Shown here piece by piece: positions 26,194-38,934 of a stretch of 64,000 nucleotides of DNA. Positions within the stretch are counted from its first letter, which is position 1, and every line of letters starts with the position of its first letter. The DNA is taken from NCBI GenBank assembly GCA_963707025.1, contig CAVPOM010000012.1, positions 224,001 through 288,000 of the forward strand, given 5' to 3'. The stretch comes from an uncultured Verrucomicrobiae bacterium (GTDB lineage: Bacteria; Verrucomicrobiota; Verrucomicrobiia; Limisphaerales; Palsa-1400). Made by a program: the position numbers and the translations under genes. Below the pieces are notes generated by a model. It ran no database searches, was not told the origin of the DNA, and was given only the letters and a program-made list of their open reading frames with translations.

Positions 26194-26645
26194 AGTTCAA
26201 GCCACCACCATGAGACCTGGGCCGCAATCGGTTCACCCCCTTCTCTCATGGAGAATGGTGGATAGTCAGGAAACTCCCTTTCGCGCAGAATTGCAAGGCT
26301 GCTTTCAATCCATCCTTGAGCCTGTTGTGTTTTGGCCGATGGGCAGGGCTTAAACGCCTGCGTCACACTCGCTCCTCCAAGCCAGCAACCGGGCCTGTCA
26401 TCCTGTGACGTTTCGGTTACGAAAACCCGATAATTTCCACCGCAAAAGCCGCGCCGCAAAAGGCCGGCCGATGCCAAGGGAAATCCGCCGTTTAACCGGT
26501 TTCGCCCCGCGTTTTTAGCTGTTCAAGAATCGGAAGCAGAAGTCTGAAATGCGCAGGTTTAGTCTGCCCGTCTGGTTGATAATAACAAGCCAGCGGGTGC
26601 AATTGAGCAGGCACCAGAGAAGAGACTAGAAACCTTAGCTTGGTT

Positions 26646-27362
26646 ATGAACGAGAGACGCCTCATGGTTCGTCTGGGTATTGTTGTTGCGGTGGCCGCTC
26701 TTGCCCAATCTGCTTCCGCCGCCATTCAGGAGGAGTTCGTGGCGGATTACGGCTCTTCCTGCTCGCCCTTGGCTCTTGGCTCCACTGAGACCTTGAGTCT
26801 TAACCGGTTTGACACCTCCCTGGGGTCTCTTACTGGAGTGACCATCAGGTTGTATTCTTACGACACGATCTCGTCGGTGGTTTTCAACGCCACAGGAAGA
26901 CGCGCGGCCTATTCAGGGGCTACTGCGACGGTGCCGGTGACGGTCACAGCCTCGGATGCTTTGGATGCCTTGAATGGTTTGGTCACCACCGCAACAGGCA
27001 CGGCAGGACCTTTTGCGGGCATTTCGACAGGCTCTCGCTCTGACCTAAGCGTTGCGGGCCGCAAGACTATCCCGGTTCAAATCGCCAGCATCAGCCCGGG
27101 GTCTTTTCCCTACGAAGGTGAAGGCGCGGGCAGATTCACATTTACCGTGACGGTTGCCGACTCGATCGGATCGTATTCTGGAAGCGGCGGGTCCTCCCTC
27201 TTCTTCGGAGGCGATGGGTATTCGTATGGGATGGTCGTAATTGATTATAGTTACGTCTCCGCTGTTCCCGAACCCGGCACGCTCTGCGCGGGTCTGGCCG
27301 TGGCAGGCATCGGTGGAATTGCAGTGGCGCGGCGGTTGCGGAGAATCTCTTCGCGCGCCTAA
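26646..27362 (+). CDS. PEP-CTERM protein (choice-of-anchor E-like)
   Basis: Signal peptide, RFDTSLGSLTGV, VPEPGT-TM-RRLRR. Confidence 0.9.
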   Translation: MNERRLMVRLGIVVAVAALAQSASAAIQEEFVADYGSSCSPLALGSTETLSLNRFDTSLGSLTGVTIRLYSYDTISSVVFNATGRRAAYSGATATVPVTVTASDALDALNGLVTTATGTAGPFAGISTGSRSDLSVAGRKTIPVQIASISPGSFPYEGEGAGRFTFTVTVADSIGSYSGSGGSSLFFGGDGYSYGMVVIDYSYVSAVPEPGTLCAGLAVAGIGGIAVARRLRRISSRA

Positions 27363-27830: not shown

Positions 27831-27847
27831 TGGAGGCACAAATGGAT

Positions 27848-27902
27848 TGTTGCACAATTGTCACATAATTTCCTTTGAGCTGACGCCAAAAGCGGGTATG
27901 AC
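27848..27902 (+). promoter_or_regulatory. Degenerate Pho-box-like promoter of the porin gene
   Basis: TGTTGC, TGTCAC, TGACGC on an 11-bp lattice (27848, 27859, 27881), 10 nt, TATGAC. Confidence 0.35.
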
Positions 27903-27938: not shown

Positions 27939-29447
27939 ATGAATTTATTATACAAATTAGCGGGAATTATGGCTGGGACGGCGGCGTGTCTGGCGCTGGC
28001 CGTCACCGCCACAGCTCAGGTTTCCGCGGACGCCCTGCTGGACAAGTTGGTGGCCAAGGGCCTTCTGACGCAGAAGGAGGCGGAGGAACTCAAGAATGAG
28101 ACTGCGACCAACAACCCGGAGGGTCTGAAGCTGCAGATGAGCAAGGCCATCAAAAGCATGGAGTTGTTCGGCGACCTGCGGATGCGCTACGAATACCGCG
28201 GCGCCCAACTCGGGCCGGAAGCCGGGAATAATGTCTATGATACGGCCAATCGCTGGCGCTACGCGTTGCGCGCCGGGGTCCGCGGTGACTTGGCCGATGA
28301 TTTTTATTACGGTTTGAGACTTGAGACTTCGCAAAACGAGCGGTCAACGTGGAATACTTTTGGGAGCGTCGGAACCTCTCCCTACAATGGCCCCTTCAGC
28401 AAAAGCAGTTACAGCCTCTATATCGGGGAGGCATATTTGGGATGGCGGCCGACTTCGTGGCTGGACGTTTCGATCGGCAGGGTGCCCCAGCCACTCTATA
28501 CCACGCCGATGATGTGGGATTCGGACTACACCCCGGAAGGGTTGGTGGAGAAGTTTAAATACACGCGCGGCCCGGTGGATTATTTCGCGACGCTGGGGCA
28601 ATATGTGTACCAGGACACCACACCGGGAAGTGATTATGCGGCGCAGGGAGGTTCCATTGCGGGACTCGAATTGGCGCAGTTCTCCGACAATAATGCCTAC
28701 CTGCTGGCCTGGCAGGTGGGGGCGGTTTATCACGTTGATACCAACTTATCGGTCAAGGTGGCGCCCGTTTTCTACAGTTATGTGGGCCATGGGAACGGCA
28801 ATGCGGGATATTACGGCGCGTTTGTGGGGCAGGGACAAAGCGGATTCACGTTCTACCCGGGGACCCCCACGACCGGTGTCCCGGGAGCGTTCGGCAACGT
28901 CAGCAGCTACAACCAGACTGGCATCAACAATCTGTCCATCATCGAATTGCCCATGGAGGTGAACTTCAAGCTTGGGTCGCTGGATGCCAGGGCGTTTGGC
29001 GATTTCAGCATCAATTTGGAGGGCGATGACCGTGCCCGCGCGGCGTACAATACCGCCCCGGGAGCTTTCCCCGGTGGCGTGCAACTCAACCAGGACCAAG
29101 CCATGCAATTTGGCCTGGCCGTCGGAAACAATCTGGATTTGGTCTATGCCGCCATTCCGAGAAAGGGGACCTGGGAGGCGAGGGCTTATTGGCAGCATGT
29201 CGAACAATACGCGCTGGACCCCAACCTGCTGGATTCAGACTTTTTTGAAGGCCGCGGCAATCTGCAAGGATTTTACACGGCGTTTGCTTACAGCTTCACC
29301 GACGCCTTGATCGGCACTCTCCGCTACGGTTGGGCCGAGCGCATTGACAACCAACTGGGCACGGGCGGTTTCAACGCTGATTTGCCTCTGCCCAATCCGG
29401 TCAACAAGTTCCAGATCATTCAAGTGGACGCTACCTGGAAATTCTAA
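27939..29447 (+). CDS. Putative outer-membrane porin
   Basis: Signal peptide, DALLDKLVAKGLLTQKEA, GDLRMRYE, WDSDYTPEG, DSDF, terminal WKF. Confidence 0.88.
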   Translation: MNLLYKLAGIMAGTAACLALAVTATAQVSADALLDKLVAKGLLTQKEAEELKNETATNNPEGLKLQMSKAIKSMELFGDLRMRYEYRGAQLGPEAGNNVYDTANRWRYALRAGVRGDLADDFYYGLRLETSQNERSTWNTFGSVGTSPYNGPFSKSSYSLYIGEAYLGWRPTSWLDVSIGRVPQPLYTTPMMWDSDYTPEGLVEKFKYTRGPVDYFATLGQYVYQDTTPGSDYAAQGGSIAGLELAQFSDNNAYLLAWQVGAVYHVDTNLSVKVAPVFYSYVGHGNGNAGYYGAFVGQGQSGFTFYPGTPTTGVPGAFGNVSSYNQTGINNLSIIELPMEVNFKLGSLDARAFGDFSINLEGDDRARAAYNTAPGAFPGGVQLNQDQAMQFGLAVGNNLDLVYAAIPRKGTWEARAYWQHVEQYALDPNLLDSDFFEGRGNLQGFYTAFAYSFTDALIGTLRYGWAERIDNQLGTGGFNADLPLPNPVNKFQIIQVDATWKF

Positions 29448-29464
29448 TCATGATGCCGGGCAAA

Positions 29465-32400
29465 TTACTCCGGCAGGAGCACGGTCACTCGGCCCACGTA
29501 CTCCATCAATTGTGGCTTCTTCTTTTTCTTCAGGTCATTGTCGTCCGTATTGTCATTGGCGGCCAAGTCCGAATTGGACTGGGTTGAGGTGGCGACTTGC
29601 TGCGTCGTCGCCGCCGCTGCGCCAGAATTGCTGCCGGTTGGGGCGGCGGCGACCGCGGCTCCAGAGACGGCCCCGGCGGTGCTGACACCACCGCCTCCAA
29701 AGGCTGCGGCGACGTCCGCCGCCCCGCTCACATTCACGCTTCCCACCCCGACAACGGTTCCGCTGACCGTCCCACCGGCGCTTACGGAGGCCGCCCCTTG
29801 GGACAAAACGGTCGCGTTGACATTTTGCAGGGCGCTGACATTCGCGCCCACGCTGGCCACCACCAAGCCATTGATATTGCCGGTGGCCGTGATATTGACC
29901 TGCGCGCCAACCACCCCGGACCCGGATGCGTCCACGCTGCCGACATAAGCGACCGACCCGTCGGGGTATTTGCTGCCGGCGCTCAAGTTTATGGTGGCGT
30001 TGTTATCGGCCGCCGAACCCAAGGCAAGTTGAGAAATGCCTCCCTGGCTTGCCACAATGTCGCCCCTGGGCGTCTCTACCGTGATATTCCCGACTTGCGA
30101 CGAAGTCTCGCCATAGACCAATTGAGGAAAACTGGTGGCCAAAATGCCGCTGCCCGGAATGACCTCGGTGAGGTCCGCCACCTGCCCCTGTTTATTCAAG
30201 TAGGGCTTGGTAACTTCCACAATCCCGCTGCCGCCGGTGCCGGCATTCACATTGCCTTGCAGCGACTCCACGAAGATGTTGCCGCCATCATAGGCGGCGA
30301 TGCGCGAGCCATCCACATTCACGTTCCCCTCCGCCACCACGCTGATGTTTCCCTGCCACACCGTGACGATGCCCACATAGCCGGAGGCCGGAACCAGTGA
30401 CGAGCCCAGGGTGATCGTCCCCCCGCAATTCACATTAATGTTCCCTCCGTATTCGGAACTGATGGTTGACGAAAGCATCGTGAGGTCTCCGCTCACGGAC
30501 AGGTCAATGTTCGCTCCGCGAGCGGTATAAGGTTCCAGCGCCGGTTCATTGTTCAATCCCTGCGAAATCACCCCGGTGCTGTTTCCCAGATCCACGGACG
30601 CTGCATTTATCCGCAACGTTCCCGGCCCGGCGATGAAATACCCGGGCAGGGCATGTGTGGCATCAAGCTGGCTTTGGGCGTAGATCAGTTGGACGGAGGT
30701 CGCGTCCAGAAAAGGAGTCCGCATGGAGAGCAAGGCCTGTTCGACCGCATGGGGCATGACCCCCCGATACTCCACGCTGCCAGCAGAGGGACTGTAGGTG
30801 AATGAGTTCTCCACGTTCTCGAGAACAGGATTCAGGTTGGGATTTGGAATGGTCGGAACGCCAAAGGCAGTCGGCACTGGCAGAAGCGTGATGGCGCTGA
30901 GATAGGGATCTGCAACCTGGTCCAGAGCACTGAAATCAGGCGCCTCTCCGGAAGGCAGCGAGACAATGACGTAGTCGCTATGATTGAGAATTTCTCCGCC
31001 GGCAGAGAGGATGGTGGTGTCAGAGGGATGGAGATTCTGAATGGACGCGCTACAGTCAATAATGTTGTCCGTCACGTACATTTCCACCGCTTTCGGGGAG
31101 GAGATGGCAATGTCGGACACCGAGCCGCTGATAGTGATCTGCGCCGGGTTCGGATCGTTCAAGTGCAGCAGCAGGTTGGGGTTATAGTCAATGGGGGTGA
31201 AGGATAGCGTGCTTTGCCATTGAAACGACGAGCTGTCGGAGAGATTGATGGTTATCGGGATTCCGGCTGTGCCGCTGCTGAGGTTGCCGCCGCCGGTGGT
31301 GGTCAGGTTGAACGTTCCTTCCGGAGAAGGGAACAGATTAATGTCGGTGTCGAGTTTAATGCCGCCAGCCCCCGCGTTGATCGTCAAAACAGGCGGGAAA
31401 ATCAGACCTTCGCTGGTATTGTCACCGCTGATGCGGGGCAGAGACTGGCCGGTGATGGTGACGCCATTGCCGGCATTCAAAACCACCGAGGCCAGAGGGT
31501 CGTAATCGAACAGGAACTGGTCGGGGGTGGGACTGTTTCTGAAGGTTACAGAATTGTTGAACATTCCGTTCGGGTTGCGCACCTCCTGCAAAACAATGTT
31601 GTCCGCCGCGTTGACCACCCAGCCGCCTTTGATCAGGCTCAGGGCAAGCGGTTGGCTTGTGTCGCCCGCATTGGCGGCTGTGATGGTGCCGGTGCCATTG
31701 GCCACAACATAATGTCCGGTCACATCGCCACCCGCTGTCAGGGTCACATTGCCCGGAGCAGCCCCGAAAGCACCGGAGCCGGAATCTTCCTGGGTCGCAG
31801 AGCTGGTTGTCGGCAGCGCGGCCGTAATGCCGCCTCCCGCCTGAATGGTGACATTGCCGCCGCCGGCCGTGCTGATGCCGCCCAGATAAGGGTCCACGGT
31901 ATAACCCGCGCCGCTGCTTGAAAACAGATAACCTGCCGGGCTGGCACCGCAATTCACGTTTCCGGCCAGCGCTTGAACACTGACATTGCCGCCTCCACTG
32001 CTCATTACGTTGCCGTTCGCGATTCCCGTCACAATCCCGCCGTTTTCAATCGAGACGCTGTTCCCGGCCACAACCGAGATGTTCCCGGCGGCGGTTTCGA
32101 TATAACTGTAGTCATAGAGATTGACGTTCCCCATGCCAGAAACGACGCGGCCCGTGGCGAAATTGTATCCCGCCTCCAACGTCACCGACCAATTATTCTC
32201 ATCCGTGATCTGCGAGGGGTTGTTGAACTCTCCCAGCGTGATGTCGCCGCCGGCCTGAAGGGTCAGTTGGCCCGTTGTTTTTCCTGTGCTTTGGGACAAA
32301 TCCCAGGTGGTGCCCGGATCCAACGTGATGTCCCCGGAGGCTTCCAACAAGATCTGACTGGAGGTGATATGCTGAAACGCGGTGTTGACGTTGACGTAGA

Positions 32401-33556
32401 GCGTGCCGGAACTGCCGCTTCCGTTGATCGTTCCAGTGCTGTCCGGACCGGTTGTTCCCGTCGTCCCCAGCTCGATGTTTTCCGGGTCAAGCGTGAAAAC
32501 CCCGCTGTTCCAACCTGTCCGGGCGCCAGTGTCAATGCTCGAACCCAGCGACAGAATGTTCGGCGCGCTGACTTCCACATTCCCGCCGTTCCCGCCATGG
32601 TCCCCGCCTGTCGCCGAGATTTGACTCCCGGCGCTGTCGCTGAAAGTGCCGCCGGACTTGATGGTGATGTCCCCCCCAGGGCTGGATCCGTTGGCGCCTC
32701 CATTGGCCTGGATCACGGAGGAGCCTGCCAATTCGACATCCTGCGAGGCATAGAACTCAATCACCCCGTTTTTCTCACGAACGGAATTGGCCTGGACCAC
32801 CCCGCTATTGTTGACTGTTTGCGCCTGCAACAGCACCCGCCCCGCGTCGGCCACGATCCGGCCCTGGTTGTCCACACTGCCGGCGGGCAGTTGCACGGGG
32901 GCTGACAAGCACAACCCGTCCGGCCGCTCCGAGAGCAACACCTCCTGGCCGGCCACCAGGGCCGCCGTGCCGCCGGGCGCCTCGATGGTTCCGTGGTTCT
33001 GGATCTGTTTGGCGATCAAAAACAGGGAGCCTCCCGCGGCCGTTTCCAAATGCCCGTAATTGACAATCGGCGCCGCCGCCGGCGGGCCGTCAAAACTCCA
33101 ACCCGCGCCGCTTCCCGACCCCCATGGATTGATCGCCGCCGTCGTCACCACCAGCCCGCCGGTTTTGACAAAAGCATTCGGGCCAAAGTAAAACCCGCTC
33201 TGATTTTCCAGGACCACGATGCCATTGGCCTGCAAGGAGCCAAAGATCGTCGTGGGATTCCCGCTCCTGATGTAGTTAAAGACGATGGAACTGGCCGAAG
33301 GTTGATTAAAGACGGTCGTCTCCCCCGCGGCGATATTGAAACTGTTCCACTGCAAGAAGGCGTTCTGGGAGGTGGTGATCTGCAACACGCTGCCGTGTTG
33401 GGTGGCATGGGCCGATCCTGAAACCACCGTCATCCCCTGCGGGCCTGCGTAGCCTGTGCTGGACGCCAAGCCGAGCAACACAGCAACGAGCGCCGGCAAT
33501 CGGCAAGTTCTTGCTGGAGCCGTCTCGTGGCCTTTGCGGGTTAGTGGCAATTTCAT
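29465..33556 (-). CDS. Two-partner secretion exoprotein (TpsA, filamentous haemagglutinin family)
   Basis: Signal peptide, WNSFNI...FNQP, IFGSLQANG, G/N-rich beta-helix repeats, DUF3739-like C-terminal region. Confidence 0.92.
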   Translation of the reverse strand: MKLPLTRKGHETAPARTCRLPALVAVLLGLASSTGYAGPQGMTVVSGSAHATQHGSVLQITTSQNAFLQWNSFNIAAGETTVFNQPSASSIVFNYIRSGNPTTIFGSLQANGIVVLENQSGFYFGPNAFVKTGGLVVTTAAINPWGSGSGAGWSFDGPPAAAPIVNYGHLETAAGGSLFLIAKQIQNHGTIEAPGGTAALVAGQEVLLSERPDGLCLSAPVQLPAGSVDNQGRIVADAGRVLLQAQTVNNSGVVQANSVREKNGVIEFYASQDVELAGSSVIQANGGANGSSPGGDITIKSGGTFSDSAGSQISATGGDHGGNGGNVEVSAPNILSLGSSIDTGARTGWNSGVFTLDPENIELGTTGTTGPDSTGTINGSGSSGTLYVNVNTAFQHITSSQILLEASGDITLDPGTTWDLSQSTGKTTGQLTLQAGGDITLGEFNNPSQITDENNWSVTLEAGYNFATGRVVSGMGNVNLYDYSYIETAAGNISVVAGNSVSIENGGIVTGIANGNVMSSGGGNVSVQALAGNVNCGASPAGYLFSSSGAGYTVDPYLGGISTAGGGNVTIQAGGGITAALPTTSSATQEDSGSGAFGAAPGNVTLTAGGDVTGHYVVANGTGTITAANAGDTSQPLALSLIKGGWVVNAADNIVLQEVRNPNGMFNNSVTFRNSPTPDQFLFDYDPLASVVLNAGNGVTITGQSLPRISGDNTSEGLIFPPVLTINAGAGGIKLDTDINLFPSPEGTFNLTTTGGGNLSSGTAGIPITINLSDSSSFQWQSTLSFTPIDYNPNLLLHLNDPNPAQITISGSVSDIAISSPKAVEMYVTDNIIDCSASIQNLHPSDTTILSAGGEILNHSDYVIVSLPSGEAPDFSALDQVADPYLSAITLLPVPTAFGVPTIPNPNLNPVLENVENSFTYSPSAGSVEYRGVMPHAVEQALLSMRTPFLDATSVQLIYAQSQLDATHALPGYFIAGPGTLRINAASVDLGNSTGVISQGLNNEPALEPYTARGANIDLSVSGDLTMLSSTISSEYGGNINVNCGGTITLGSSLVPASGYVGIVTVWQGNISVVAEGNVNVDGSRIAAYDGGNIFVESLQGNVNAGTGGSGIVEVTKPYLNKQGQVADLTEVIPGSGILATSFPQLVYGETSSQVGNITVETPRGDIVASQGGISQLALGSAADNNATINLSAGSKYPDGSVAYVGSVDASGSGVVGAQVNITATGNINGLVVASVGANVSALQNVNATVLSQGAASVSAGGTVSGTVVGVGSVNVSGAADVAAAFGGGGVSTAGAVSGAAVAAAPTGSNSGAAAATTQQVATSTQSNSDLAANDNTDDNDLKKKKKPQLMEYVGRVTVLLPE

Positions 33557-33586
33557 TTTGAAGAATCGTGGTTGAATTGTCTCTAT

Positions 33587-36445
33587 TTAAAGCTGGGCGC
33601 TCAAGCTGAACGAAATCCGCTCGTGGCCCGCCACGGTATAGGCGCCGTTCAGCAGGGGCCAGGCGATCAAGATGTGGCTTTCCACATACGGGCCGAATTT
33701 AAAGTTGATCCCCGCGCCCATGCCCCAAAGCGCTTGGTGGGCGTTGGACGCGACGCCCTGGTCCAACTGATAACCTTCCCCGTAGTCAGTGAACGCGGTC
33801 AACTGCGTCCCAAATTTCTTGCTGGCGCCGCGCCAGTAAGTGGGTGAACGCAGTTCCATCTGCCCCACCCAGCCGGTATCCGCATACAGCTCCCCTTCCT
33901 GGTATCCGCGCACGCTGGCGTTGCCCCCCAACTCGAACTGTTCCAGGTTCAGCAGCGGCTCGTTGGCCCACTGCCCCGACAGGCCGCCGTACAAGGTGAA
34001 GTTGCCGGGCAGGACCTGGGTGCGCGACAACTGCGGCCGCACCGCGATGAATTCCGTGGTGGCCTCCGTCGAATTGGCAATCAGAACCGGGAATGGCCTG
34101 ACCCGGCAAAATGTCCCGCCCGTTCCCGCCACCAGCGACAGGCCACCGTCAAATTCACTCCACTGATTGCTCGTCGCTGCCCTCTGACCCCAATGGTCCT
34201 GACGCGATCCTGTCCACCCCAAAAAGAACGGCGTGTACTGCAAGGAGGGAAATGTCTGAACCCCGCCTATGGAGATGGTCTTATGGGTGATGGTGGGCGG
34301 GGCGCTTGAATTGGCGCCGTGCGTCACGATGGTGGTGTAGTAAAAGTCGTTGGCCGGCAGCGTTACCACCTTGTCCTCCTTGTAGTCCATCCCGAAGCTC
34401 CAACTGGACTGGATCCCCTGCCACTCCGGCAACGGAAAGCCCACCCTTCCCCCGGCGGTGGTTTGCGAGGTGTATTGCTGGGTTATCAGTTGCTGTTCAA
34501 TCTTCAACAGAGAGGTGTCCACCACCTGGCTCACCGGCCCATAAATGGTCGGCCCGGTCGTGGAACGCGAGGCATAGGCCGTGAACTCCGGCCGCCCGAT
34601 GGCCGGAGGCTGCACGAACTGCCGGGTCGTCTCGTTGTAACCAAATTTATTCGGGTCTTGGGCAATTTGTGATTCCACCTCCGCCGGCGCCCCCAACGGC
34701 GCCCGGTAAAAGCCGCTGTAATAAGCCACCGTCGGCGCGTCCATTGGGTTCAACGCCACATGGGTATCACTGGCCAGCGATGGTTTCAACAGTTCGGGGC
34801 TGAACCCGTATTGCAGGCCCAGGGTGTGATCCAACTGCCACAGATTTCCGTAAGAGGCATTCCCATTCACCCGCAACTCCGGCGTGCCCGGCGGACTGTA
34901 GTTGTCCATTTCCAGCCGGCCATGCAAGGGAAGCCGGTCTGTGACATCCAGGGTGAGCGCCGAGGTGCCCGGCTCCGGTCCTGGGCCCACTTTCGGATAG
35001 ATTTGCCGGTCGGGGTTGGAATTGGCGCGGTCCAACTCCGTTTCAAACACCTTTGAGTTCAGAATGCCCTCCCCGGATTCGAGCGTCGTCGCGTACGGCA
35101 GCGAGGCCATGATATTATTCGAACTGAAGTAATGGTTGTGCAGAATCCTGACCGCCGCCAGCTTTCCCTCGGTCACCTGAAAATAGACAACCCCGTTGGT
35201 GAGTTTCTGCCCGGCGGGAATGGCTACTTTCACGGTGTAATAGCCGCGCCGGAAATACTCCAATTGCAGGGCGGCCCAGGCGTTCGTGGTTTTGTTTATA
35301 AATCCATCCATATCCACCGCCTCGCTGGTGTACGGAGCCAGAACGCTGGAAATCAGGTTGCTTGCCAGCAGCGTGTTCCCAATCACCTCAAACCGGTCCA
35401 GCTTGAACTTGGGCGTGGCCTGGGCGGCAGCGGCGGCGTTGGTGTCAGCGGCGTTGGTGCGGGTGGCGGCGGCCACCGGCTGGTTGGTGCTGGTGCCGCC
35501 GGCCTCTTGCGCCCCAAGACAATTGGAAATCCCCGCCGAACTCAACAGCAGCCAAACCACCACCGCCGCCAATTGCAGCGGCTTGGCCCGCGGCGGGCGG
35601 CGCGGTGGCGTCGTCTGCGCTTGCCGCCATTCCGTCGGGGTCATGTGAAACCGCTTCTTGAAAACGTAATTAAAGTGCGCCAGCGACCCGTGCCCGCTCT
35701 CCAGGGCCACGTCAATGATCTTCAGGTTCCCCTCCAGCAGCAATTGACACGCCTTCTTGAGCCGAAGACCGGACACATAAGACGGGAAGCTGGTTTCCCA
35801 CTCCTCTCGAAACAGCCGGCTCACGTGCCGTTCGCAGCAGTGCAGATGTTTGGCCAGCTCGCCAAGGGTCAAACTGGTCAGTTCGGATTCCGGTGTTTGA
35901 CCGATGAAGTGTCGCAGCCGCCCCTTGGCCTCCATCTGCTTCTTCTCATTCTCCATCCCCTCCTTCAGGGCGGCCTGCAATTGGGGCTGCAACAATTCCG
36001 CGAACGCTTGCGCCAACGCCAGCCGGGTGGACAGCGTCGGCGGCTGAGTCTGCGCGAACAATTGCGTCACGCGCCCGGCCAGGGGGTGATCCGCCGGCAG
36101 GGCCAGGAACGGCGCGCACTGCCGCGCCACCTCCGTCTCCAGGCATCGCCGCTCCAGCGCCGTCACGAACCCCGTCAACGCAGCCACCCGGAACCCCACT
36201 CCGCGAAACCTGGCCCGCCCCAGCACACTGGCCGTGAGCGTGATCTGCGCATTGGGCGGGCAGACGATCACCCCGCCCAAGGGCAGTTCCTTGTTGGCCT
36301 TGCTGTCAAAGACGTAGGCAATCCCCTCGCACAATTGCAGAACCATCCAATCCTGCGCCGTAAAATGCCAGTCCGCCCCGTTGAGAATGATCCGCTCAAA
36401 CTTGGACAGGTGTGCGGGATTTGACAATTGGATTGGCTCGCTCAA
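33587..36445 (-). CDS. AraC-family regulator fused to a ShlB/FhaC/HecB (TpsB) transporter
   Basis: LRLKKACQLL...IIDVALESGHGSLAHFNYVFKKRFHMTPTEW; internal signal-like helix; POTRA (FEVIGNTLL, VTEGKL); GGNASVRGY; start uncertain (36427-36463). Confidence 0.9.
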   Translation of the reverse strand: MSEPIQLSNPAHLSKFERIILNGADWHFTAQDWMVLQLCEGIAYVFDSKANKELPLGGVIVCPPNAQITLTASVLGRARFRGVGFRVAALTGFVTALERRCLETEVARQCAPFLALPADHPLAGRVTQLFAQTQPPTLSTRLALAQAFAELLQPQLQAALKEGMENEKKQMEAKGRLRHFIGQTPESELTSLTLGELAKHLHCCERHVSRLFREEWETSFPSYVSGLRLKKACQLLLEGNLKIIDVALESGHGSLAHFNYVFKKRFHMTPTEWRQAQTTPPRRPPRAKPLQLAAVVVWLLLSSAGISNCLGAQEAGGTSTNQPVAAATRTNAADTNAAAAAQATPKFKLDRFEVIGNTLLASNLISSVLAPYTSEAVDMDGFINKTTNAWAALQLEYFRRGYYTVKVAIPAGQKLTNGVVYFQVTEGKLAAVRILHNHYFSSNNIMASLPYATTLESGEGILNSKVFETELDRANSNPDRQIYPKVGPGPEPGTSALTLDVTDRLPLHGRLEMDNYSPPGTPELRVNGNASYGNLWQLDHTLGLQYGFSPELLKPSLASDTHVALNPMDAPTVAYYSGFYRAPLGAPAEVESQIAQDPNKFGYNETTRQFVQPPAIGRPEFTAYASRSTTGPTIYGPVSQVVDTSLLKIEQQLITQQYTSQTTAGGRVGFPLPEWQGIQSSWSFGMDYKEDKVVTLPANDFYYTTIVTHGANSSAPPTITHKTISIGGVQTFPSLQYTPFFLGWTGSRQDHWGQRAATSNQWSEFDGGLSLVAGTGGTFCRVRPFPVLIANSTEATTEFIAVRPQLSRTQVLPGNFTLYGGLSGQWANEPLLNLEQFELGGNASVRGYQEGELYADTGWVGQMELRSPTYWRGASKKFGTQLTAFTDYGEGYQLDQGVASNAHQALWGMGAGINFKFGPYVESHILIAWPLLNGAYTVAGHERISFSLSAQL

Positions 36446-36462
36446 TTTCGCCACAACGTGCA

Positions 36463-36517
36463 ATTATACAGAGATTCGTGGCAACCATGCGGCTGCAATG
36501 TGACAATCTTGTGACAA
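36463..36517 (-). promoter_or_regulatory. Pho-box-like promoter of araC-tpsB/tpsA
   Basis: TGTCAC-N5-TGTCAC-N16-TGCCAC-N9-TATAAT. Confidence 0.7.
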
Positions 36518-36562
36518 TGTATTGGTCAAAAATCACCGCGGCCTGCCACCCGCCGAAAAACC

Positions 36563-36597
36563 AAAAAAAGGGTGCGGACCCTTGCGGGGCCGCACCC
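36563..36597 (-). terminator. Intrinsic terminator
   Basis: GGGTGCGG...CCGCACCC stem followed by T7 on the minus strand. Confidence 0.85.
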
Positions 36598-36641
36598 GTT
36601 TCCAGTCCCCAAGCCGGGGACTTTAATTTCGGTTGACGAAC

Positions 36642-38006
36642 TCAGTTGCCCGTGATCACATCGCCGCCATCGCCGGCGTTGCGATAGACATTCATTTGGC
36701 TCAGGTTGACCGCCGTCGGAAGCGCCCTGCCTCCAAATTTAGAGTAGTGCGCGGGATTTTGGATTTCATACTGGACAGCTTCAATCAAATCGGTCGCAAA
36801 GGCCTGGACAAAGACGGCGCTGGATTGCAGACCCGCGATGGCCGTTTGAGTGCCATTGGCCACATTCTGACCTTGATACATGCGTTCATAATTCCACATG
36901 ATATAACTGCCGTTGATGACGGCATTGGTATCGTAATAACCTGTGTTCGGAAAAGTCCCGCCCACCCAGGGTACCTGGCCCTGAAAGCTGATCGGACCCT
37001 CAAAATTGGTGGCGGTGCCCGTCATTTTCGAGGAATCCGCCCAACCGATGTAGGCAATCGCGGCGGGAGCTCCGTTGACGGAGGCGTCATGCATGGCGAA
37101 CCCGACATTGCCGCCGGTAAAATAGCCGTTATTGGCAACAGACAGCCATTGGTTGCCGGTTGCCGGAGGCGCCAGCGTGTCGGTGGATGCCAGGCCCGGC
37201 GTGGTTGATCCGTCCGCGCTCAAGCCATATTGATGGAGATTTTGGAGCAGCGAGTAACCCCAATCGCTCACCGTCGAGCCGCGAGTGCCGGAGAGGTTGT
37301 AACGGCCCACGGCATACACGGATGAGCCCGAGTCCGTGGACTTGCCCGTGAAGAAGCTCAGAGGATACTGCCCATTATGAAACAGATCTATGAATTGGAG
37401 CTCGGTCATGCTGGTAATGGATTGCGCATTTCCATCCACCACCATGGTGAACGGTTGAACCGCGATGCCGGTTGGCGCATGGCGGGCCTGGTCGGCGGCG
37501 AGGCGAGACTCGACCAGGGTGATCCCGGTCTTGGCCGCCGTGTAATTCACCCCGCCCAGCGTCCCCTGGTAGCAGGTGGACTGGGCTATGTCCGACATCG
37601 CGATGTCGGCTCCATTATGACTGAAGGTGCCGGTGAAGAATGATCCGGAATCCACATTCTGATACGTTGCGTTGTTCGTCGAATAGAGGAGGGTCTGGAC
37701 TCCCTCCACGGAACCGCTCCAGGAGCAGAACACGGTCACCGGGCCGGTCGCGCTCAAGGGAATGCTCCCGCCGGTGGTGTCGGTGAGGGTGCCTGAGTAG
37801 GTGAACCAATTGGAGCCGGAGGCATCTTGCGCTGCGGATGTCAGGCCCAAATCAATCAGGGCGTTAAAGATCTGGCTGCGGAAGGCTGTGGAGCCAGTGA
37901 GATAAACTGGATTGCCGACGACGCTGCCATCGGGCTGAGCTTGGGCGGCGCCCGCGAGACCCAGCCCCAATGCCAGAAGGCTGATTGTTTTGATCATGTT
38001 TTTCAT
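36642..38006 (-). CDS. Secreted PstS-like (periplasmic-binding-fold) protein
   Basis: Signal peptide; TGSTAF, SGSVEG, DIAMSD, GRYNLSGTR resemble PstS/DING motifs. Confidence 0.65.
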   Translation of the reverse strand: MKNMIKTISLLALGLGLAGAAQAQPDGSVVGNPVYLTGSTAFRSQIFNALIDLGLTSAAQDASGSNWFTYSGTLTDTTGGSIPLSATGPVTVFCSWSGSVEGVQTLLYSTNNATYQNVDSGSFFTGTFSHNGADIAMSDIAQSTCYQGTLGGVNYTAAKTGITLVESRLAADQARHAPTGIAVQPFTMVVDGNAQSITSMTELQFIDLFHNGQYPLSFFTGKSTDSGSSVYAVGRYNLSGTRGSTVSDWGYSLLQNLHQYGLSADGSTTPGLASTDTLAPPATGNQWLSVANNGYFTGGNVGFAMHDASVNGAPAAIAYIGWADSSKMTGTATNFEGPISFQGQVPWVGGTFPNTGYYDTNAVINGSYIMWNYERMYQGQNVANGTQTAIAGLQSSAVFVQAFATDLIEAVQYEIQNPAHYSKFGGRALPTAVNLSQMNVYRNAGDGGDVITGN

Positions 38007-38078: not shown

Positions 38079-38934
38079 TTAGGCAGTGAGGGAGCGGAGT
38101 TGACGGCGGAAAGCCAAGGCGAGGAGGCCAGCGGCCGCGATCAGGCCGTAGGTGGACGGTTCGGGAACCGCGCTCAGAGTGCCTTCCGAGAAATCCACTT
38201 CGCCATCGGGCAGGAAGGAGAAGTAGCCATCGTAGGCGGGAGTGCCCTGGCCGGTCGCTGGCGTTGTCCACAGCGCCTCATAAATCGCGCCGGTGGTTGG
38301 GGTGGCTTCGGTCGCACTGCCGCTCAACTGGCCGGCGTAGTTAATTACGTCCGGGCTGCTGGTGTTCCGGGCCAGGGAGTGGTAGCTGTTGGCGTTGGCG
38401 TCGGGAACGATGGCTCCATTGACTGAACCGGGAAGCGTCGTCTGCGCACTATCAACATAGCCGCCGGCTTCGGCTCCGATTTGCAGCATAGACCCGCCGA
38501 CGTTGCCCTGCGAGACTGTGACTGCCCTGTACGCTGGCGCCCTGGCCTGAGGTGATCACCCTTGACAGCCACAAGGTGGTTCCGCCACTGAGATTATTGT
38601 CTGCGGCCACCGACATGCCGATTTGATTGACCGGACCTACCGCCGTGGTCAAGCTGGAGACGGTGAACTGCGACGCGTAGCCAGCGGTGCCGGTGATGCC
38701 GGCGCCTGAATTCAACACCGCCGTTTGGCCAGGGAGGGCCGCAACGGTGCTGAGAAAGGTGCTGACTTGCCCCACGTCAACCACCACATCATTGCCACCG
38801 TCGGTGGAAGAATTCCGGAACAGGAGCATGAGGTCATTGTCGTTAAAGGAGCTCAGTCCTTGCCCGAACGCCTGGGAAGCCGTCACGAGCGCAACCCCGG
38901 TCAGGACGGCCAACATTGTTTGTTTCTTGTTCAT
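38079..38934 (-). CDS. PEP-CTERM protein; frameshift near 38526
   Basis: Signal peptide in ORF 38452-38934; VPEPSTY-TM-RRQLR in ORF 38079-38489. Confidence 0.85.

Follow-up and report, generated by a model that had tools for sequence, protein, structure and literature searches.

A conserved AraC–TpsB fusion with an internal signal-peptide-like segment in a verrucomicrobial order

Transcriptional regulators and secretion pores act in different compartments of the bacterial cell and are encoded separately. Can one gene nevertheless encode both in a single chain with the export signal in its middle, and what would become of such a protein? The question is raised by a 64,000-nucleotide (nt) stretch of DNA, referred to below as the window, from a soil verrucomicrobium (uncultured Verrucomicrobiae bacterium, GenBank assembly GCA_963707025.1, contig CAVPOM010000012.1, positions 224,001 to 288,000), the minus strand of which carries an AraC-type regulator fused to a TpsB transporter of two-partner secretion (TPS). 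This AraC–internal signal peptide–TpsB architecture is real and conserved, and apparently undescribed; its parts are ordinary, its junction is not.

Architecture of the araC–tpsB gene

A single frame is open on the minus strand from TTG 36463 to the stop codon at 33587–33589 (958 amino acids, aa), with no stop codon between the AraC half and the TpsB half. GTG 36454 is the likely start. The parts of the gene were located as follows, using Pfam, AlphaFold2 (AF2) models with their predicted local distance difference test (pLDDT) values, Foldseek and family alignments.

33587..36454, minus strand: araC–tpsB fusion gene, 955 aa in the gene-caller form (P0001) from GTG 36454; frame open since TTG 36463
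36095..36415, minus strand: cupin-like N-terminal regulatory domain of the AraC part (AF2 pLDDT ~90; Foldseek)
35621..35857, minus strand: AraC-type double helix-turn-helix (HTH) DNA-binding domain, HTH_18 (Pfam; invariant residues in the family alignment)
35642..35644, minus strand: in-frame ATG (M274) in the last HTH helix, a possible, non-conserved internal start (sequence; family comparison)
35579..35623, minus strand: basic AraC tail, the putative n-region of the internal signal peptide, QAQTTPPRRPPRAKP (sequence; similar basic tails in unfused AraC homologues)
35525..35578, minus strand: hydrophobic h-region, LQLAAVVVWLLLSSAGIS (alignment; low-confidence helix in AF2)
35510..35524, minus strand: c-region NCLGA, followed by QE; predicted signal peptidase I cut after A318 (35510/35509), alternatively after G311 (heuristic and alignment)
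35411..35509, minus strand: low-complexity Ala/Thr/Asn-rich linker of 33 aa, starting with QE, from the signal peptide to POTRA1 (pLDDT ~30)
35009..35410, minus strand: POTRA1 and POTRA2 (Pfam POTRA_2; AF2 secondary structure)
33590..35008, minus strand: TpsB β-barrel (L6 motif VRGY at 33902–33913; FTDYG at 33779–33793)
29465..33556, minus strand: TpsA cargo gene, 1363 aa, next downstream (TPS secretion domain at residues 40–271, E 1.2e-27; TIGR01901)

Pfam assigned HTH_18 to residues 203–281 (E 1.3e-20), with HTH_AraC in addition (E 4.4e-10), and POTRA_2 to residues 353–433, ShlB to residues 801–920 (E 1e-19) and Omp85 (E 3.7e-8) to the remainder. The full-length AF2 model (mean pLDDT 81.6) showed, in this order, a β-rich N-terminal domain, a helical DNA-binding domain, a low-confidence stretch at 283–346 with one helix (291–308), two β-α-α-β-β units corresponding to the two POTRA (P0001 residues 350–411 and 422–491), and a barrel. 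When the AraC module was modelled alone, a pLDDT of 91.9 and seven helices at residues 176–279 were obtained. Foldseek matched this module to full-length ToxT (4mlo, E 4.4e-11), Rns and CsvR, and its N-terminal domain to the arabinose-binding domain of AraC (2arc, E 3.6e-6) and the regulatory domain of ExsA (4zua); top matches of the whole model were CdiB (6wim, E 1e-25) and FhaC (4ql0 and 4qky). The first 280 residues are predicted to constitute a complete AraC/XylS regulator, with the C-terminal two-HTH domain and cupin-like N-terminal domain of that family, and the remainder an ordinary TpsB with a signal peptide of its own. All equivalog-level NCBIfam matches to the AraC half fell far under their cut-offs, for which reason it was taken as a subfamily of its own; TIGR04094 ('YSIRK-targeted surface antigen transcriptional regulator') matched weakly.

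VRGY/F on loop L6 and F/GxDxG on strand 13 are given as hallmark motifs of TpsB/Omp85 proteins in the accessible sections of a TPS review (PMC5422565). The residues R, G, Y and F, D, Y, G of these motifs were invariant or nearly so in 91 aligned sequences. The fusion protein thus has two POTRA, an Omp85-type barrel, both motifs and an adjoining TpsA; in place of an N-terminal Sec signal peptide, it has a signal-peptide-like segment which begins at residue 281, after the folded AraC. The TpsB half fits the TpsB family in every tested feature but the position of the signal peptide. Ratios of non-synonymous to synonymous substitution rates (dN/dS) in five fused pairs were 0.10–0.39 for the AraC part, 0.11–0.68 for the junction and 0.07–0.25 for the TpsB part, which suggests that both halves are under purifying selection and functional. 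A search of the source genome returned this gene as its sole AraC–TpsB fusion, alongside three AraC paralogues.

The original prediction, derived from the letters of the window, had described one unbroken frame comprising AraC, a signal-peptide-like segment, POTRA and a VRGY barrel; the open reading frame (ORF), the Pfam matches and the motif positions agree with this, and the junction residues RRPPRAK, the h-region and CLGA/QE read exactly as stated there. Of its AraC span (~36445–35620), the assignment to AraC was retained and the start at 36445 was found to be slightly off, GTG 36454 being likelier. It had also placed neither a stop nor an ATG between the HTH and the h-region: no stop is present, and the ATG at 35644–35642 corrects the second part.

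Fused, split and divergent relatives

A search for AraC + POTRA_2 + ShlB architectures, suggested together with the prediction, returned HTH_18 and POTRA_2 in the same protein in 111 of the best 120 of 399 significant database matches (35–100% identity), and AraC and TpsB in one open frame in 28 of the 50 loci examined from the same order. Most of the best 120 matches spanned 96–100% of the query, with identities between 34% and 81%, under automatic names only (e.g. 'hemolysin activation/secretion protein/AraC-like DNA-binding protein'). Among the best 150 representatives at 50% identity, 30 were at least 850 aa long and 23 matched both halves in one stretch; the fusion family amounts to ~30 clusters at 50% identity and >100 at 90%. 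Matches at E 1e-20 or better were found in 100 of 301 genomes of the order, and none at E 1e-40 in 400 genomes sampled from the rest of the phylum; among the genomes searched, no member of the family was found outside the window's own order. Longer matches of the AraC subfamily consisted of AraC with POTRA_2 (and ShlB) in 60 of 63 cases, the other three being unrelated AraC proteins, so that no fusion partner other than TpsB occurred among these 63.

On a TpsB tree (50 rows, quick IQ-TREE run, LG+G4, unrooted), the label fused or unfused requires at least four changes, and fused genes are spread over several starred clades that lie >1 substitution per site from one another. It is a real fusion and an old one. 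Two ordinary genes could have been made to look like this by an error in sequencing or assembly, through the loss of a stop or a change of frame between them, and single cases of this kind were seen: two relatives (G516 and G675) are reported with one TAA inside the match, and L055 (G662 C60) is frameshifted by decay or assembly error, though inside POTRA2, the locus being fused at the junction. Against such an origin of the window's gene stand the 28 fused loci in different genomes and a set of >100 distinct fused sequences that independent assemblies and sources have yielded, and the explanation was rejected as extremely improbable. Regarding the reads across the junction, which the original prediction had proposed to inspect, a soil-metagenome contig spans 35451–35672 with zero differences; it possibly stems from the source sample and is hence weak, not independent, support. 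The datasets containing the stretch comprised a single DNA dataset (this soil metagenome, covering parts only) and no listed RNA dataset.

A match to the TpsA N-terminus adjoins tpsB in 49 of the 50 loci. AraC homologues at these loci align over the whole module (query residues ~15–285, ~28–37% identity) and occur in three arrangements: fused to tpsB in 28 loci, as a divergent neighbour in 12, and co-directional just upstream in four (L022, L036, L048 and L052); four loci have no araC within the stretch examined. The 12 divergent loci form one clade on the TpsB tree (support 98). To judge by these arrangements, the AraC subfamily is the dedicated neighbour of tpsB–tpsA loci across the order and functionally linked to them.

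The split loci show the layout from which the fusion can be read. In L022, which belongs to the same family as the window's genome, araC ends with ...ARPAARINL-TAA and the next in-frame codon at the junction is ATG; the TpsB begins with MAAPNPLPNHRAFFFRCALAAVLAGLCLTCRAA/ETN..., an ordinary signal peptide that aligns with the window's internal segment and is followed by POTRA1. Close unfused TpsB relatives in the database begin 0–26 aa ahead of the aligned h-region. The unfused AraC homologues, 16 in number, all carry a basic tail ending 14–45 aa past the WR motif, and no hydrophobic segment was seen by eye in the printed tails of these 16. Because the split relatives have this layout, the fusion was decomposed into a soluble AraC with basic tail, the h- and c-regions of the TpsB signal peptide, and mature TpsB. 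The four split loci do carry the stop at the junction that had been named as evidence for two separate genes; they are other members of the family, and their stops do not indicate errors in the window. One of them, L048, lies beside the fused L025 on the TpsB tree. In L052 (G509 C129), a frame change was observed between signal peptide and POTRA1, reflecting decay or assembly error.

Variation was also observed downstream of the junction. A subgroup of 1037–1142 aa (P0068, P0069, P0071, P0082, P0086, P0096, P0100, P0103, P0110 and P0120) has an additional POTRA-like module of ~100–200 aa between signal peptide and POTRA1, and in others a helical insert (ARAALLQKMAE...) takes this position.

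The internal segment and the fate of the precursor

By alignment, the internal hydrophobic segment is the homologue of the signal peptide with which unfused TpsB relatives begin, and signal-peptide-like n-, h- and c-regions are kept in the family, which supports the internal signal peptide of the original prediction. Junction geometry was measured in 108 fused proteins, using own rules rather than a signal-peptide predictor. From the WR motif to the hydrophobic run there are 11–24 aa with a median net charge of +4, and the run itself has a median length of 16 aa (range 9–26). Between the predicted cut and POTRA1 lies a linker with a median of 26 aa; 30 of the 108 proteins have 20 aa or fewer there, and the minimum is 7 aa. 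Textbook cleavage sites of the types AFA↓Q, ASA↓Q and AAA↓Q are seen in the alignment of distant clades (SAFA↓QTN, SASA↓QTN, KAAA↓QTS, LWA↓QPA). A strict home-made filter (basic residue, hydrophobic 9-mer, small residues at −3 and −1, +1 unscored) was passed by 58 of 107 junctions and by 19 of 8332 other windows of the same proteins; the former is a family-wide figure, within which the junction of the gene studied here was not singled out.

When the same filter was applied to the source genome, 420 of 6804 ATG-initiated ORFs of at least 200 aa were selected, and Q was found at +1 in 27.4% of these 420, compared with 4.9% of all residues. A comparable bias for Q after the signal peptidase site is known as the 'Q-rule' of Bacteroidota. 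The sequence ...LGA↓QE at the window's junction seems to fit the export-site style of its own genome. Three homologues of signal peptidase I are also encoded in this genome, together with one M50/RseP-like and one S49/SppA-like protease. A lipoprotein signal was considered and rejected, the Cys of ISNC being not conserved and without lipobox context.

The open frame shows that regulator and pore are co-translated as one chain, and the topology signals place AraC in the cytoplasm and TpsB outside. The fusion protein is very probably made and exported through its internal signal peptide, and signal peptidase probably cleaves the precursor. The following order of events is proposed. The AraC part would fold first, in the cytoplasm; the basic tail and hydrophobic segment would then emerge and engage Sec in N-in orientation, and the 640-residue TpsB part would be translocated. 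Signal peptidase I would cut after the c-region, most likely at A318↓Q319, or at G311↓I312. The freed TpsB would follow the chaperone and β-barrel assembly machinery (BAM) route to the outer membrane and secrete the TpsA encoded downstream. AraC would stay behind at the cytoplasmic side of the inner membrane, anchored there by what is left of the signal peptide; this remnant most likely would be cleared by the RseP-like or SppA-like proteases to leave a soluble AraC resembling the unfused homologues. The regulator would act on its own promoter through direct repeats upstream of the gene, and perhaps also on a neighbouring porin gene and a few other sites. Regulator and pore would arise at 1:1, each regulator maturing only once its own pore had been passed to the export machinery. 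Taken together, Sec export, the signal peptidase I cut and a membrane-held or freed, autoregulating AraC are considered somewhat likely. It is a tentative and rather doubtful extension that the protein serves as an export-gated transcription factor, matured in two steps by signal peptidase I and a subsequent signal-peptide protease, by which the tps operon and a small regulon including the porin gene would read out pore precursors passing through Sec; bolder still, an uncut chain would link promoter DNA, inner membrane and outer membrane.

Several observations weigh against this proposal, and most of them bear on one of two other readings. TpsB could be made mainly from an internal start, at ATG 35644 or at one of the TTG (L298) and two GTG codons (V301, V302) at the start of the h-region (35572–35560), the fusion then being a tolerated by-product of a lost stop without regulatory meaning. 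Of 126 fused proteins, 79 have Met as the sixth residue of the motif in the last helix, compared with 2 of 16 unfused AraCs, a contrast that is a weak hint at an internal start because the unfused set is largely one clade. Fused and split states also interconvert, as in L022 with its TAA-ATG and in L048 beside L025; the TpsB tree being unrooted, gain of the fusion cannot be told from its loss. Shine–Dalgarno (SD)-like motifs are absent before the internal start codons, which is uninformative since the genome hardly uses them: they precede 25% of its signal-peptide-defined starts and 18% of its internal Met codons, a bare enrichment. On the other side, without a stop between the halves AraC can be made only as a fusion, every ribosome that makes it continuing into the signal peptide and TpsB, so that the fusion product exists whatever else is made. 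No Met lies between the motif and the h-core in 33 of 126 fused proteins, no ATG, GTG or TTG is found at the position equivalent to M274 in 8 of 23 fused loci, and L017 has none of these codons anywhere from the motif to the h-region. A conserved internal ATG was accordingly rejected as a general rule, and the same figures exclude, as a rule for the family, the case raised with the original prediction that TpsB is translated solely from an internal TTG or GTG, while additional internal starts are possible for the window's gene. A consensus promoter and terminator scan of 29300–36800 gave no site at the junction, with totals not above those of shuffles. The fused state has, moreover, persisted in clades separated by more than 1 substitution per site, the AraC part being under purifying selection, and a meaningless fusion with TpsB made mainly from an internal start is regarded as unlikely.

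The second reading accepts the chain as made and lets the segment stay in place as an uncleaved signal anchor: the intact protein would consist of a cytoplasmic AraC, one transmembrane helix, a periplasmic tether and an outer-membrane barrel, and would inform the promoter about the condition of the pore or about TpsA secretion. With a median of 21 aa, the uncharged span that surrounds the h-region would suffice for a membrane helix, and 49 of 107 junctions fail the strict filter. At the favoured site GA↓E/Q, members of the window's close clade often have a bulky −3 residue (F, H, P or L), which signal peptidase I substrates typically lack, and a c-region reaching to this site would be long (11 aa); the alternative site after the conserved Gly (SAG↓I; G311/I312) fits better there. 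Chance A-x-A patterns arise easily in the Ala-rich linker. Membrane-bound DNA-binding regulators such as ToxR, CadC and TcpP exist, and the window's 33-aa linker together with two POTRA might reach partway across the periplasm. What speaks for cleavage instead is the homology of the segment to the cleaved-type N-terminal signal peptide of unfused relatives, the textbook AxA↓Q sites in distant clades, and the solubility of the unfused AraC homologues. At ~0.35 nm per residue and a periplasm of ~20 nm, a linker of 20 aa or less plus two POTRA is too short to span the envelope, and members with such a linker, down to 7 aa, would have to leave the inner membrane. A barrel tethered to the inner membrane would also need assembly by BAM while anchored, for which we know of no precedent. 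An uncleaved anchor is thus judged quite unlikely, and cleavage by signal peptidase is preferred.

Known proteins share parts of this arrangement. Like FhaC and CdiB of type Vb secretion, the fusion has two POTRA, an Omp85-type barrel, VRGY and F/GxDxG motifs and a tpsA directly downstream; unlike in these, its signal peptide is internal and preceded by a 280-aa folded cytoplasmic regulator. FhaC has a 16-strand barrel and a dispensable N-terminal H1 plug, whereas in the fusion a disordered low-complexity stretch precedes POTRA1, without a confident helix (pLDDT ~30) or an evident H1. The two-domain fold with HTH_18 is that of ToxT, Rns, CsvR, AraC and ExsA, which are free cytoplasmic proteins, while the C-terminus of the fusion's AraC runs into an export signal and an outer-membrane protein. 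ToxR, TcpP and CadC are N-in proteins with a cytoplasmic DNA-binding domain on a single hydrophobic segment; the predicted topology of the fusion is the same, but these are winged-helix proteins with stable anchors and periplasmic sensors, in place of which the fusion combines an AraC fold with a signal-peptide-like segment and a barrel in the outer membrane. In flavivirus C-prM and hepacivirus core-E1, an internal signal sequence comes after a cytosolic protein that binds nucleic acid; signal peptidase cleaves at the far side of the membrane, from which a second protease then frees the first protein. The fusion resembles these capsid/signal/envelope junctions in logic, although they belong to viral polyproteins at the eukaryotic endoplasmic reticulum, and to our knowledge no such internal-signal polyprotein has been described among cellular bacterial genes. 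For RsiV and RsiP of Bacillus and Clostridioides, signal peptidase is the site-1 protease, followed by an intramembrane site-2 cut, according to the accessible sections of three papers (PMC4183432, PMC6066255, PMC8844934). As far as these sections go, RsiV and RsiP share with the fusion a cytoplasmic regulatory domain, one membrane span and a signal peptidase cut at the outer face, which in the case of the fusion is a proposal; they are anti-sigma factors gated by ligands (lysozyme, β-lactams), and the fusion combines a DNA-binding regulator with a complete outer-membrane transporter, the cleavage of which would be constitutive and export-coupled.

In line with the original prediction, which knew of no such system, no description of an AraC–TpsB fusion was found in the literature searched, a scope outside which most subscription journals and supplements lay. 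In the accessible parts of a survey of Omp85/TpsB architectures (PMC4104836), the terms AraC, HTH and fused do not occur, nor does AraC in those of the TPS review (PMC5422565). A whole family encodes regulator and pore in a single chain around a central export signal, and this could tie gene control to export. If signal peptidase separates the halves, the family would offer a new route to a membrane-tethered or export-matured transcription factor and a natural system for the handling of a large folded N-terminal domain by Sec, and would bear on the clearance of signal-peptide remnants and on the matching of regulator dose to secretion capacity. If the chain stays whole, a single polypeptide would extend across both membranes. 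The split, divergent and fused variants in related genomes provide natural controls.

Upstream direct repeats and neighbouring genes

Upstream of the fusion gene, and ahead of a porin gene on the other strand, the following sites were located.

36463..36468, minus strand: TATAAT, a −10-like hexamer 8 nt before the GTG start (also in L007 and L008)
36500..36518, minus strand: candidate operator, direct repeat ATTGTCAC-AAG-ATTGTCAC with a period of 11 base pairs (bp) (kept in L007 and L008; family-wide pattern)
36568..36583, minus strand: terminator-like hairpin ending the upstream gene (scan; 8 such sites in the region, 8.3 expected from shuffles)
27846..27864, plus strand: second operator-like site, ATTGTTGC-ACA-ATTGTCAC, 75 nt upstream of the Porin_5 gene

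With the hairpin at 36568–36583, the fusion gene would be its own transcription unit. The TATAAT was not called by the consensus promoter scan because it has no −35 element. L007 and L008, the AraC parts of which are 63% identical to that of the window, keep AATACATTGTCAC-N3-ATTGTCAC upstream and have TATAAT 8–9 nt before the ATG; this spacing, shared with the window, makes a leaderless mRNA possible.

In the 150 nt upstream of araC at 44 loci, CGTAAC, GTAACA, TGTAAC and TGTCAC were the top enriched hexamers, with CGTAAC in 15 of the 44 regions (1.0 expected). Pairs of YGT[ACT][AG]C were exactly 11 bp apart in 12 loci and 22 bp apart in six, and all other spacings within 6–35 bp occurred in 0–2 loci each. 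The background for the phased repeat was 30 of 2911 windows, and shuffles averaged 0.16 loci. The repeat stands ahead of fused, split and divergent araC alike. In the source genome (G000), the 19-mer operator pattern at ≤2 mismatches gave six sites, compared with one for the reversed control. The AraC part of the fusion is proposed to bind the direct repeat. The strict form is found in only 17 of the 44 upstream regions overall, and one of the three paralogous AraCs, instead of the fusion's, may bind the candidate operator. AraC-type control of secreted adhesin operons is known from Rns, which binds upstream of the TPS operon etpBAC in the accessible part of a preprint (bioRxiv 10.1101/362178).

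The Porin_5 gene behind the second operator-like site (27939..29447, plus strand, E 1.5e-28) is convergent with tpsA. A homologue of this porin with 43% identity sits between araC and tpsB in L049, and the porin is possibly co-regulated with the TPS operon. Four more operator-like sites with 1–2 mismatches lie elsewhere in the genome (C12:84355-84373, C15:108062-108080, C3:339605-339623 and C17:164413-164431; L057–L059 and L061). Several of these share the extension ATTGTCACATTG, and L057 and L058 are apparently intergenic. They may represent a small regulon or targets of the paralogous AraCs.

Some further features of the neighbourhood were recorded. The C-terminus of TpsA (29465..29530, minus strand) reads KKKKKPQLMEYVGRVTVLLPE, a lysine run followed by a short hydrophobic tail. 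Directly upstream of the fusion gene, a secreted 454-aa protein (36642..38006, minus strand) is encoded, for which Pfam and NCBIfam gave no match and which may belong to the cassette; homologues (25–37% identity) precede the fusion gene in 13 further loci, each of them fused at the junction. The locus is flanked by small secreted proteins with PEP-CTERM-like C-terminal motifs (VPEPGT..., VPEPSTYG...), encoded at 26640..27362 (plus strand) and 38079..38489 (minus strand).

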